This document shows, one piece after another, positions 14,001 through 20,000 of a stretch of 58,089 nt of DNA. Origin of the DNA: Candidatus Omnitrophota bacterium. GTDB lineage: Bacteria; Omnitrophota; Gorgyraeia; Zapsychrales; Fredricksoniimonadaceae. The stretch covers positions 1-58,089 of the forward strand of contig CAIVRE010000028.1 of assembly GCA_903908245.1 (NCBI GenBank), read 5' to 3'. Numbering within the stretch: position 1 is the first letter of the stretch; the number at the start of each line of letters is the position of its first letter. Made by a program: the position numbers.

Positions 14001-17000
14001 GGAGAAGTGCGGCAAAAGCGTCTTTAGACTTGGCCGTCTCCCCCAAAAGATCGGCAATGACCCCCATATTAAAAAGCGCATCAAAACGCGTGCGGTCAAC
14101 CGACCAGACAGAGGCGAACGCGTCATAAGCCTCGGCATTCCTGCCCAAACGGCCATAAAAAACCCCCAAAGCAAAAAGAAGCTCGGGGTCCCGGGGCGCC
14201 ACATGAAGCTTTTCTGTATATTGCTTGACCAGAGCCGTATATGCGGCCTTTTTATTGCCCTCAAGGACAGGATTAATATCTTCGCGCGCAGGCATCGCCT
14301 CGTAAACACGCACCGCCTTTAAATACTCGCCGTTGTCTGCCAATGCCTTTCCAAGCGCGATCCGATAATTCGGGTTGCAATCATGCAGTTGGACCGCTTT
14401 CCTGAAATGATCGATCGCCAGGTCGATCCTGCCCGTCTTGACATACACGGATGCCAGCGCATATTCGATACGGGAATTCCTGGGGTCGTTCTTCAGGGAA
14501 TTCTGCAGCACCAGCAGTTCATTGCCCGCGTAAATATTCTGCTGAACAAGCATCAGATAAAGAAAAACAATGAACCCGCCGGCCGCGATCTTCACCGCTT
14601 TAACCGACAAGACCTCCTTGCGAACAGCCGTATCGGCCGCCAGGACCAGAAGAATAAAGACCGGGATGCTCGCCAGGTACATGAAATGTTCCGCCAGCGA
14701 AATGGCCGACGGATATGCACCGATGGATGTCACCACCTGGGAGATCGGGAACAGCTCGGCCCAGAACCATACAATACAGAAAAGGACCAGCTTCGGCATC
14801 CGGCAGACATAACGCACGAACAACACCAAAAGGCTCAAATAAACACCCAGCGTTATCCAGACCCGCGGATCCCTGAAAGACTCATAGACCACTCGCGCAC
14901 GGTCAAAATACAGGTTCACCGGAAAGAAAATAAGCCGGATATAAGTGAACACCCCGTTCAAAAATGTCGTAACGCCCAACGCCATGAGCGACAACGACGG
15001 CCAGGGGAACGGGACAGTGAGGCGCATCAAATGATGGATAAAAAGATACCCTGCCACGACCAGCGCCAACGGCCACAGGCGCACCAGCGATCCCGCGCTC
15101 TTTTTCGCGACAAGGAGCCAATACAACGCCGCCACCACGATGAACATCCCCGCCGACTCCTTGCAAAGCAACGCCAGGGCATAACAGCCCGACATCAGAA
15201 CAATATCCCTCAGGCGCCCGTCACGGATATATCGAAGAAGAAAATAAAAAGCGGTCAAAACGAATAATGCGCACAAAAGGATGGCCCGGCCCGATACATT
15301 CCCCACCGCCTCCCAATGGATCGGATGAACGGCGAACAACACGCTCACCCAGAACCCGCGCATACGGTCATGGAACAACAGTCCACAAACCAGAAAAACA
15401 AAGAACGCATTAAGGATATGGATAAAGACATTATCCAGGTTATAAAAGAAATAATTAAGCCCGAACACGCGATATTCCAGCGTATAGGACACATAGACCA
15501 TCGGACGGTAATAATCTTTCTCCACCTTGAAATAAGTCGAGGTAAAAAAACGGGGAATATTGGCAAGGTCGCGGATCTCGACATTGCGGATGATCGAGAA
15601 TTCGTCATCAAGGTTCTTGAACGGGCTATGCAGCATGAACGAATAGGCAGAAAGGGCCAAAACACCAAGGAGCAACAGGACGATAATATTGGACTTGAGG
15701 ATGGAAGAAAAGAAGTTCGTCATAGATATGGAAAACACCTGCCGTTGACCGGCAGGTGTTTTTTATCTCTTTTCCCTGAGAACACTAAAAAGAAAGAGAT
15801 AAAAAAAGCTGACGAAAGGAATTGAACCCTCGACCCGCGCATTACGAATGCGCTGCTCTACCAACTGAGCTACGTCAGCGTAAATGGAGATTTTTTATAC
15901 CACACCTTTTCAACGCTGTCGAGCATGATTTTCTATACGCGGGAAAGAACGGCAGATTGTTCACAAAGCGCCCCTGACATCAATGTCCATTTATCAGGCC
16001 AGAAATAATACCCCCCGACCAAAGAATCCCCCGAGGTCAGGGCAATGCCTTCACTCATGCTGCTTTTTTCTCTTTTGAGCCCCAAAAACTCCAGTCTGCC
16101 CAGGAAATCGTACACCCAATCCTGGATCTCCCTGCGATCATCGCCAATAAAGGCAATGGAATCAACCCCTTCCAGGACAGCCGCGCAGGCTCCAATGGTC
16201 TTTACAAGCTGATACGACAAAATGTCCCTGGCAAATACCGCCTTCGGGCCGTCACGGACAATAAGCTCTGAAAACCCCAGTGGCTCTCCAAGCAAGGCCG
16301 TGAACCCGCTTTCCTGCGATAACACCTGATGGATCCTTTCCAGGGAATATCCCGCGGCCAATAACTGAAAAACGATCGAAGCATCGATCGAACCACAACC
16401 GCCCTTGGAAAGAATGCCGTCAAAATCCGAAAAACCACAACTGGTCATGACCGGCCTGCCGTCTTTAAACGCCACAACATCCGTACTGTCGCCCAAAAAG
16501 ACCGTAATGCACCTTGAAGCCGGCACGCCGCGGATCAACGCAAGCCGTTTGGCCGTCCATTCATGAACAAGGCCGTTGCGGCCGCATTTCCAAAGCCCAT
16601 CCTCAATGCATTCAAACGGAATGGCATACAACCGGGCATGCTCCGGCATGTTACAATAAAGATCCGGATCGCCAAGGATGACATGCCGGCTGTCAGCCAG
16701 ATACTGAGAATAAAAATTAACAAGCTCCCGCATCACGGCATCCGTATCCCCCCCGAAACAGGGGACCGCCGCGCCTGGCCTGCTGTTGCGTACCAGATAC
16801 CCGACCATGCTGACCTCACGCCCGTCGATAACCTGCAACAGCCTTTTCTTGAACAGTCCGGCCTCCCGCTCCATGCCCTGCGCGATGGTCCGGTCATTAT
16901 CTCTAAGGCAAAAATGAATGCCCTCTTTGTCAGCATCCAGCAGCACGATCATTTTTTCTCTCCCAGGATCCGGCCTCCTTCAAGGCAGATCATCAGTTCT

Positions 17001-20000
17001 TCCTCGGTTGGGACGCTCACAATAGCGACCTTCGAAGAGGAAGATTGAACAAAGGCCGCGGCATTCGACGCAGCCCGGTTATTTTTTTCTTTATCGATCA
17101 CAATACCCGCCCAGCCTAAAGATGCGCACACCTTTTCACGGATCAGCGGATTGCCGACACCGATATCGTCCGTAAAGACCAGCGCATCCACACGGCCCTT
17201 CAGCGCCATAACATAACTTCCGATATAACTTTTCAGGCGGTAAATATACATTTCCAGGGCGAGTTTCGCCCTTTCTCCATACTGCGGATCATCGATACGC
17301 CCGATAATATCCGTAAGATCGCTCGAAAAGCCCGAGATCCCGCGCAACCCGCTTGTATTATTCAGCATCGCCTCGATAGCCGAAGGCGTTGATCCGCGCT
17401 TTTGAGCCAGATACAAAAGGACCGCCGGATCAATGTCGCCGGAACGGGTGCTCATGATCAGCCCGGAATTGGGCGAAGATCCCATCGACGTATCCACGGA
17501 CGCGCCATTCTCGACCGCCATCACGCTCGCCCCGCCTGTCCCCAGGTGACAAACGATCATGTTCAACTTCTCCGCCGGGAGGTCAAGCAGTTCCGGCATC
17601 CGCCCGCAAATATACGCATAGGAGATCCCGTGAAAACCAAAGCGCCGGAATTTAAAACGGTCCACGATCCCCTGCGGCAGAGGGAAATGATACGCCCTCG
17701 GCGGGATCGTCGAATGAAAAGCGGAATCGATCACCAGATAATGCGGGATATCCCCGAACACCCGCATGGCCTCGTTGATCACGTTAAATGAAATGGGATT
17801 ATGCAGCGGCGCCAGCGGAAGGCACTCTTTGACCTTGGCCAGGCTGTCACGGTCCAGGATAGCCGACCGCTTGAAATACTCGCCGCCATGCACAAAACGA
17901 TGGCCGACGGCATCCACCGGGATCTTGTGCCCGACGATATACCGCGCGGCGAGCGCAGCCGCTGTCCTATGGTCGGGAATGTCAACGATCTCTTTTTCAA
18001 CCTTCCCGTTCCAGGCATTCTCGATATAAGAACGCTCGGTGCCCTGGACCCCGACCCGGTACGCCTTGCCCTTAAAGACAAGGGCGGCCTTGCCCGGACC
18101 CTGCAGGTCGAAGATCTTGTAGCTCAGCGAAGAACTTCCGCCATTAAAGACCAGAATATACATAATGTTTATCAAGGTTAACGAATGAATTTTGGTTTCC
18201 CAGGCTTCTTTTCTGCGCCCGGACAACAGTCACCGCTGTGGCATCAACAATATCTTCCACGGAACACCCGCGGGAAAGGTCGCTGCAAGGCTGAAGCGTG
18301 CCCAGAATAATGGGGCCGATGGCGCGCGCATGCGCGAGGCGTTCGGTCAGCTTGTAGCCGATATTCCCGGCGTCGAGCGTTGGGAAAATAAGAACGTTTG
18401 CCTTACCAGCCACATCACTGCTCTTGAGCTTAAGCGCCGCGACCTCGGGCACCAAAGCACTGTCGAGCTGAAGCTCGCCATCAATAAAGAAGTCTTTCTT
18501 CAGATCCTTGGCAAGTTCAACCGATCGACGGACTTTTTCAACCAATTCCCCGCTGGCGCTGCCTTTGGTCGAGAAACTGAGCATGGCCACCCGCGCGGGC
18601 TTGTCCATGACATCCTGGAAGAACTGGGCGCCGGAGACCGCGATCTTCGCCAGCTGGGCGCTGGTGGGGTCCGGGATGACCCCGCAATCCCCGAAACACA
18701 TCACACCCTCTTCGCCATAAACACAGTCGGGAACAGCCATCAGGAACGCGCTCGTCACAAGCCCGATCCGGTCATTGATCTCCAGGCAGTAAATGACGGC
18801 ACGCATAACATCCGCCGTCGAATGCGCCGCGCCGGTCACCATGCCGTCGATAAAACCGCAGCGCAACATCATGGCTGCGTAAAAATGCTGGTCCTCCATG
18901 AACTCCCTGGCCTTGGCCAGCGTAAGCCCTTTGCCCTTGCGGTATTCATAAAGCAAATAGGCGAATTGTTCCTTCTGGAACTCCTCCATGTCTTCCCTGG
19001 CGAACAAAAGCGGCTCCGCGATCCCCTCGGAACGAATGATCTCGACCGCTTCAAGCACCCTCGGGTCCTTGGTCTCAGGGAAAATGATCCTTTTGGGATC
19101 AAGCCTGGCCTTATCCCGGATGCGATTAATGACATCCATGTACATAAAATGCTCCTTTAATTTTTATCCGTAGAAACACGCCTCGTTCCTGCCGGCCGCC
19201 TTGGCCATGTAAACCCCCAGATTCGCCTGCAGAAAGAATTCCTGAATGGTCATGCCAACGATAAAACGGGACATCCCGATGCTGATGGTAATGCCATTAT
19301 CCGTCATGGCCGCCTGAATCGCATCCTTGACCGACTTTGCCAGGCTCATCGCCTCATCCCTGTTCGTTTCCGGCAGGAGCACCAGGAACTGGTCCTGGGC
19401 CTGACGGCAAAGAATATCCGTCGTACGCAAATTCACCTTTAACAGGCCCGCGACCGCCTTTAACAGCTCGTCGCCTTTTTCCCGGCCGTTCTTTTGATTG
19501 TAGCCGGAAAAATTATCCAGATCGATCATCATCAATGACGTCGGATGAAAGATCCGCTCGACACGCCGGGTCTCGGCATCCAGGCAGGTCATGAAATACT
19601 GATAGTTACAAAGGCCGGTCAGCGGATCCTTGATCAATCCGTCAAAACTGCTGGCAGCATTGACATCGACCGGGACCAGGTCGGGGATCGGGCGCTCCTT
19701 GGACTTTCCGGCGGGCTTCATGGCGGCAACCTCTTCAAGGATGCCCTCCACACCGACCGGATCGCCGTTCTTGTCGCACAACATGGTGCTGTGCGCGGAA
19801 AGGACAACCTGGGAACCGTCCTTACGCAGCATCTTGACCAGGTAATTCTCCACAAAGCCTTCCTCCGATAATTTCTTGAGGAATTCCGCGCGGTCCGTCT
19901 TGCGTTCATAGAATTTTTCCGCAATATTATGCCCCAGCACCTCTTCCTGGCTGGAATACTGCAGGATCCTGGCCAATGACTGGCTGACGACGGAAATATT

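Follow-up and report, generated by a model that had tools for sequence, protein, structure and literature searches.

The acetate kinase gene and its operon

The subject of this study is an acetate kinase gene (ack) in a stretch of 58,089 nucleotides from a Candidatus Omnitrophota bacterium (assembly GCA_903908245.1, contig CAIVRE010000028.1); the whole stretch is referred to as the window. The gene is complete, runs on the minus strand from 18163 to 16949 and encodes a protein of 404 residues with the N-terminus MYILVFNGGSSS. The protein carries motifs of the acetate kinase of Entamoeba histolytica (EhACK), and is called Entamoeba-type or TGG-type below. In a profile search it matched PF00871 with 379.7 bits over residues 3–393 (cutoff 22) and TIGR00016 with 382.3 bits (cutoff 293.4). 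With its catalytic and acetate-pocket residues intact (see below), the protein is an unambiguous member of the acetate kinase family. No NCBIfam equivalog model reached its cutoff for the kinase (top score 318 bits versus a cutoff of 659). The AlphaFold model of the kinase has a pLDDT of 87.

The kinase gene stands between two others in a tight operon on the minus strand. Upstream of it lies a phosphotransacetylase gene (pta, 18144–19145; PF01515 with 322.6 bits, TIGR00651 with 316 bits), which overlaps the start of ack by 20 nucleotides. Downstream lies an open reading frame (ORF) of 339 residues with a weak PF00871 match (15933–16952), the ATG of which overlaps the stop codon of ack as ATGA, an arrangement of translational coupling. 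This ORF is predicted to be a degenerate, catalytically dead paralog of acetate kinase and is termed pseudo-ACK.

Active-site residues

Active-site positions were compared over 254 near-full-length family members aligned to the family profile, using the numbering of the M. thermophila enzyme (MtACK); 129 of the sequences carry an inserted Gly (insertion-type) and 125 are canonical. In the window kinase the PHOSPHATE2 motif reads CHLGTGGAS (17525–17551, minus strand, residues 205–213), with Asn211 replaced by Thr and one Gly inserted. The ADENOSINE motif reads FTDDIGVG (17153–17176, minus strand, residues 330–337), with Asp at the positions of Ala/Gly330 and Gly331, Val for Glu334 and Gly for Asn335. 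An earlier reading made from the sequence alone (the sequence-only reading) had given both motifs exactly as they stand in the translated gene. It had also given the Entamoeba motifs correctly: in a search of solved structures, the protein of PDB entry 4h0o has CHLGTGGSS and FTDQMGLE, and its alignment with the window kinase is gap-free at the extra Gly. HLGN-G and FTAG[IV]GEN are the corresponding sequences in the enzymes of M. thermophila and T. maritima.

The general catalytic residues, which the same reading had described as intact, are all there (N7, S10–12, R91, H123, D148, H180, H208, R241 and E384), and the acetate-pocket residues V93, L122, F179 and P232 are kept as well. Over the 129 insertion-type sequences the catalytic residues are invariant, save for two N-terminally incomplete sequences that lack the first residues, and the pocket residues are either kept or exchanged for similar ones. 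Because this side of the active site is intact, the kinase should still handle acetate and acetyl phosphate. The same data bear on the possibility that the gene is decaying or inactive and that its odd motifs are damage. Apart from the unusual motifs nothing speaks for this; the frame is full-length, and both the catalytic residues and the motifs are invariant in 129 clade members of many phyla. We regard decay as hardly credible, and the conservation data effectively refute it.

On the nucleotide side, 128 of the 254 aligned sequences have Thr-Gly-Gly and a single further one has Ser-Gly-Gly. The combination of Thr (Ser once), the extra Gly and Asp330 occurs in 129/129 clade members and in 0/125 canonical sequences, so that the substitutions are not, as the sequence-only reading had allowed they might be, common among ATP-type AckA. 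Six positions of MtACK have been linked to ATP use or contact, and the window kinase differs at every one of them: K14 is replaced by S, N211 by T with the Gly insertion, G239 by S, R285 by T, G331 by D and N335 by G. Position 14 is Ser or Thr in the clade (Ser14 in the window kinase) and Lys in 117/125 canonical sequences. Asn211 is Thr in 128/129 clade members, followed by one inserted Gly in 129/129 (0/125 canonical), and Gly239 is Ser in 125/129 (Ser238 in the window kinase). Ala/Gly330 is Asp in every clade member (129/129) and in no canonical sequence (0/125). The adjacent Gly331 is Asp in 120/129, including the window kinase, and Gln in Entamoeba, versus Gly in 124/125 canonical sequences. 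Glu334 is replaced by a hydrophobic residue in the clade and position 335 is variable. Arg285, which lies flat on the adenine ring, corresponds to Thr284 in the window kinase. A scan without preset sites, carried out after thinning at 60% identity, recovered the same positions and in addition a gained Lys33. Judged from these residues, the nucleotide side of the clade's active site is systematically rebuilt.

Compared with canonical AckA (M. thermophila, 1tuu and 1g99; T. maritima, 2iir; E. coli and Salmonella), the window kinase has the same predicted fold, catalytic machinery and acetate pocket, and the same classical order of pta and ack. It differs in that K14, N211, G239, R285, G331, E334 and N335 are all replaced and PHOSPHATE2 is one residue longer. 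It thus lacks the features of ATP-type AckA, namely HLGNG in PHOSPHATE2, FT[AG]G[IV]GE[NH] in ADENOSINE, Lys14, Gly239 and Arg285. N211 of MtACK is in contact with the beta phosphate, and G331 with both the alpha and the beta phosphate; each of the substitutions N211T, G239S and G331Q lowers the activity 44–200 fold (PMC4390882). These changes argue against the alternative that the window kinase is an AckA of the ordinary, ATP-forming kind whose nucleotide pocket happens to be unusual, in which case the Pta-AckA pathway would yield ATP; the points in favour of that alternative are given below. Gly331 has been said to be conserved in all acetate kinases but that of Entamoeba (PMC4390882); the aligned clade sequences show that this universality does not hold outside Entamoeba.

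Distribution of the TGG-type clade

HLGTGG[AS]S was found in 120/120 closest database homologs, down to 49% identity, and FTD[DSE]xG in all 110 homologs in which the ADENOSINE pattern was found, nearly always as FTDD[IVM]G. The odd motifs are therefore, on this evidence, not a product of chance or a sequencing quirk. The names of the closest homologs are mostly those of Omnitrophota, with Aminicenantales, Acidobacteria, Brevinematales, Elusimicrobia and Kiritimatiellae also represented. A wider search with one representative per 50%-identity cluster gave 3036 family members at E below 1e-30. Among the best 150 of these representatives about 14 have the insertion and the remainder are canonical. 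The insertion-bearing representatives include Entamoeba dispar and E. histolytica, Mastigella eilhardi, Mastigamoeba balamuthi (with HLGTGGSS and FTDDLG), a Thermoguttaceae bacterium and Candidatus Susulua stagnicola. A scan of genome contigs that used a single kinase protein and query-specific peptide patterns returned only six canonical ACK loci, at 36–39% identity.

Relation to the amoebal enzymes

The enzymes of Entamoeba, Mastigamoeba and Mastigella all fall within the 129 insertion-type sequences and carry the same signature. In a neighbour-joining (NJ) tree calculated with both motifs masked, 127 of the 129 sequences formed one exclusive clade (69/100 bootstrap), and EhACK was joined to the insertion-type sequences in 100/100 replicates; a thinned tree gave the same picture. 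Profiles were also built with all clade-defining columns masked, the clade profile consisting of bacterial members only, minus the amoebae and the close relatives of the query. The window kinase scored 513 bits with the bacterial TGG-clade profile versus 434 with the canonical one. The corresponding scores were 429 versus 373 for EhACK (+56), 449 versus 411 for Mastigella and 388 versus 344 for Mastigamoeba. Two ATP enzymes scored in the reverse direction, both of which were in the canonical training set. The core NJ clade and the masked-profile scores indicate that the amoebal enzymes belong to this bacterial clade. The suggestion in the sequence-only reading of a bacterial lineage related to the amoebal enzyme is thereby borne out: in the alignment and tree with the E. 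histolytica and M. thermophila enzymes the substitutions are clade-specific and EhACK groups with the bacterial insertion-type sequences. The placement of the amoebal enzymes inside a bacterial clade fits the lateral acquisition already proposed for the acetate kinase of Archamoebae (PMC8136499).

EhACK (EC 2.7.2.12, PDB 4h0o), which is of the same family and clade, is about 42% identical overall to the window kinase. The two have in common Thr201, the inserted Gly203, Ser230 (the G239S position) and Asp322 of EhACK, equivalent to T209, G210 (the inserted residue), S238 and D332 of the window kinase, all nearly invariant clade-wide. Both also carry a residue with a side chain instead of Gly at 323 and have lost Lys14, Glu334 and Asn335. 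The Gln-Met of Entamoeba (Q323-M324) is, by comparison with its relatives, a derived state, since Mastigamoeba keeps the bacterial Asp-Asp dyad (FTDD). More generally, Gln323-Met324, Glu327 and Asp272-Arg274 look like Entamoeba-specific derived states.

The catalytically dead paralog

The pseudo-ACK of the window scores only 87 bits with PF00871, over profile positions 131–357, and is 24% identical to the kinase. It is without PHOSPHATE1, R91, H123, H180, H208, R241 and E384, and its AlphaFold model is of low confidence (pLDDT 66). Related loci were collected as 80 metagenome loci fetched with the two clade motifs as search patterns, plus the loci of selected homologs. Of the 68 loci with room for it, 65 have a dead paralog immediately after the kinase and on its strand. 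None of 67 downstream paralogs has PHOSPHATE1; 45 have Gly for R241, most have Tyr, Asn or Phe for H180, and E384 is gone. G243 and D246 are retained in 65/67, which suggests that the paralog family is under selection. All 67 score somewhat higher on the canonical than on the clade profile (172 versus 146 bits), a difference that may only reflect profile breadth. Because of the ATGA start/stop overlap and the near-universal adjacency, the pseudo-ACK is most likely a non-catalytic partner subunit of the kinase.

The kinase is found without a partner in the basal and the Entamoeba-proximal bacterial lineages (Thermoguttaceae, P0142, P0134 and P0122), in line with the amoebal enzyme, which also works without one. 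The kinase/pseudo-ACK pair is present in Susulua, a divergent member of the Omnitrophota. Beside the solitary kinase P0142, three CoA_binding/Succ_CoA_lig genes similar to those of ADP-forming acyl-CoA synthetase stand in tandem (L093:1181–5606).

Gene neighbourhood

In the window the order of genes is PAS-GGDEF, pta, ack and pseudo-ACK. The first gene of this conserved block encodes a PAS-GGDEF protein (19164–20120, minus strand; GGDEF with 105 bits, plus PAS). Upstream of the block lies a regulator gene with HTH_3 and cupin domains (20238–20843, minus strand), assigned from domain matches and conserved synteny. The complete order HTH-cupin, PAS-GGDEF, pta, ack and pseudo-ACK is repeated in three further loci (L010, L011 and L097). 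A hairpin with a 17-bp stem (15728–15766) past the pseudo-ACK gene is a likely operon terminator; the promoter/terminator scan of 15500–21000 from which it comes was overall at chance, not above shuffled expectation.

Across the related loci, pta lies directly upstream of the kinase in 11/60, solely in an Omnitrophota-like subclade. A divergent FolE2-like gene (PF02649) is found within 2.5 kb of the kinase/pseudo-ACK pair in 40/59 loci, before or after the pair; beyond the Omnitrophota-like subclade it is the usual operon companion of the pair. It scores 62–68 bits versus an NCBIfam FolE2 cutoff of 215, belongs to the T-fold and has NE1163 (2r5r) as its top PDB match. Examples in an operon with the pair are L007:12293–13084, L008:12266–13057, L009:9145–9936 and L055:3686–4492, among others; the ORFs scanned in the window did not include such a gene. 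The scarcity of pta and the frequency of the PF02649 gene on either side would suit a complex of kinase and dead paralog that uses another acceptor (polyphosphate, another nucleotide or a metabolite) or has its main role outside acetate excretion, as would the dead-paralog pairing itself, which is without counterpart in Entamoeba. Set against this are the conserved acetate pocket and the conservation of all acyl-phosphate catalytic residues, the use of orthophosphate (Pi) and PPi by EhACK, and the fact that the data suggest no candidate acceptor. We consider this alternative rather improbable.

At an Aminicenantales locus (L009:12291–14571) a canonical pta and an ATP-type ackA (HLGN-G, FTAGIGEN) lie on the opposite strand and adjoin the TGG-type kinase/pseudo-ACK pair. 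A second locus, L051, was classed by motif pattern as having canonical ackA and pta beside the pair. The co-occurrence of canonical pta-ackA with the pair in these two loci argues that the TGG-type and canonical kinases are not redundant and do different jobs, and speaks against the window kinase being an ordinary AckA. At the Aminicenantales locus an ADP-forming acetyl-CoA synthetase-like gene pair is also present upstream, so that three acetate routes lie within 8 kb.

The phosphoryl acceptor

Since the window kinase shares derived residues with EhACK and has lost the positions of nucleotide use, we infer that it probably makes pyrophosphate (PPi). The reading that we favour, and hold to be fairly probable, is that of an active acetate kinase of a distinct EhACK-containing clade, most likely forming PPi, with a dead partner subunit. 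Pta, from its family membership, would convert acetyl-CoA to acetyl phosphate. The kinase would then move the phosphoryl group of acetyl phosphate to orthophosphate, giving acetate and PPi rather than ATP, with the translationally coupled dead paralog acting as its non-catalytic partner subunit. The PPi might then, more speculatively, be used by membrane pyrophosphatase or by PPi-dependent glycolytic enzymes.

EhACK, the only clade member that has been assayed, uses Pi/PPi (PMC5517563). Its Q323G-M324I variant still used Pi/PPi only, and the same variant with Gly203 deleted had no activity (PMC5517563). From these results, features common to the clade may matter more than Q323-M324. A parallel exists in phosphofructokinases (PFK): a conserved donor-site Gly of the ATP enzyme is Asp in the PPi enzyme, which is thought to exclude ATP (as summarised in PMC5931981). 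The change of Gly/Ala330-Gly331 to Asp-Asp in the window kinase resembles this, although the family is unrelated and the likeness is a mechanistic analogy and not evidence.

A number of points weigh against PPi formation by the window kinase. The functional data for the clade come from EhACK as the sole assay, and reciprocal motif swaps converted the specificity of neither enzyme (PMC5517563), so that the substrate cannot be read from the motifs alone. The residues of EhACK that occlude the adenosine pocket, Gln323-Met324 and Glu327, are Asp333-Ile334 and Gly337 in the window kinase, and the Asp272-Arg274 salt bridge of EhACK is missing, the equivalent residues being Asp282 and Thr284. The top PDB sequence match of the kinase is the ATP-dependent T. 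maritima enzyme (320 bits), with EhACK at 302. In a Foldseek comparison with the PDB the kinase model was about equally close to all solved acetate and propionate kinases (query-normalised TM 0.68–0.87), with EhACK tenth; because all match about equally, the predicted fold does not discriminate donor specificity. Exact monophyly of all insertion-type sequences, the most divergent included, was recovered in only 38/200 replicates (NJ, thinned set), so that NJ support for it is moderate or low in the trees calculated (69/100 for 127 of the 129 sequences; 38/200 on the thinned set). Finally, the window kinase is encoded after pta and coupled to a dead paralog, whereas Entamoeba has neither pta nor such a paralog, and the presence of this obligate partner could make the bacterial enzyme differ in behaviour from EhACK.

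Several of these points, namely the T. maritima score, the four EhACK-specific residues that the window kinase does not share and the outcome of the motif swaps, favour the ordinary ATP-forming AckA introduced above. So do the position of the gene directly after pta, as in classical ackA, and the published modelling of the Omnitrophota Pta-Ack pathway as ATP-yielding (PMC8542988). An ordinary AckA is nevertheless unlikely in our view, given the change of all six ATP-related positions, the cost of single changes of this kind in MtACK and the inclusion of the PPi enzyme EhACK in the clade.

In the literature searched, which did not extend to subscription journals, no earlier description was found of a bacterial clade of Entamoeba-type acetate kinases or of the kinase/dead-paralog pair. 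In the 1980s a PPi:acetate phosphotransferase activity was reportedly claimed for Desulfotomaculum, a claim that was subsequently disputed. For Desulfobulbus such an activity was sought and not detected (as cited in PMC3072085). Papers through 2018–2022 still refer to the Entamoeba enzyme as the only PPi-dependent acetate kinase (PMC5517563, PMC5931981).

The membrane pyrophosphatase

The window also encodes a membrane H+/Na+-pumping pyrophosphatase (42957–45362, minus strand; PF03030 with 594 bits). The sequence-only reading had taken a H+-pumping pyrophosphatase in the window as fitting a PPi-forming kinase. The enzyme is indeed there, but it lies 25 kb from the kinase in another gene cluster. 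Within 10 kb of the kinase, the other TGG-type loci that were fetched yielded no pyrophosphatase, that of the window being the sole match. As evidence of functional coupling to the kinase it was dropped for want of linkage in those loci; it is compatible with a PPi economy and not evidence for one. Neither PPi-PFK nor PPDK is encoded within the window. The pyrophosphatase gene is flanked by genes for a HAD phosphatase, a DUF502 protein and a PHO4 phosphate transporter with a PhoU_div partner (45454–48527, minus strand), which together form a small phosphate-handling neighbourhood.

Implications of a possible PPi-forming module

The TGG-type kinase and its obligate dead paralog could constitute a widespread module of PPi-forming substrate-level phosphorylation in bacteria, a tentative proposal that we would place a little short of probable. 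Kinase and paralog occur together in Omnitrophota, Aminicenantes, Acidobacteriota, Elusimicrobia, Brevinematales, Kiritimatiellae and others. If the proposal is right, many uncultured anaerobes would store the energy of acetyl phosphate as PPi and not as ATP. The energy bookkeeping in reconstructions of Omnitrophota and other candidate phyla, which now assume one ATP per acetate (e.g. PMC8542988), would be altered. The kinase would also offer a stoichiometric source of PPi for PPi-dependent glycolysis and membrane pyrophosphatases; the problem of PPi supply is openly discussed for Clostridium thermocellum (PMC8863071).

The presence of the same remodelled active site in a large bacterial clade would imply that the amoebal enzyme is of bacterial origin, with the solitary bacterial kinases as the source of the Archamoebae/Entamoeba enzyme. 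The clade would further provide natural variation for dissecting PPi versus ATP specificity, which mutagenesis failed to resolve, and the conserved dead partner would be a testable case, within the ASKHA superfamily, of a subunit that is a pseudoenzyme.

Other genes in the window

Two tandem Schlafen-group-3 helicase-like genes (1345–5717, minus strand; PF09848 with about 280 bits each), of which the second carries a fused LexA-like Peptidase_S24 domain, are possibly a defence or stress-response island. An 862-residue FtsH-like protease (8185–10773, plus strand) has two AAA modules before its M41 peptidase domain, where one is usual; it is followed by an ORF of 412 residues (10775–12013, plus strand) with no Pfam match at E below 1e-5. 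The region 33950–41776 (minus strand) encodes a CbiM/PDGLE metal transporter and a group-4 (Ech/Mbh-like) NiFe hydrogenase with antiporter-type subunits; at 35045–36358 (minus strand) a HypC/HupF domain is fused to a radical-SAM domain. Other domain fusions are a PilZ domain with a SAM methyltransferase (26893–28293, minus strand) and, unusually, an apolipoprotein N-acyltransferase (LNT_N and CN_hydrolase) with a C-terminal response-regulator receiver domain (49654–51516, minus strand).

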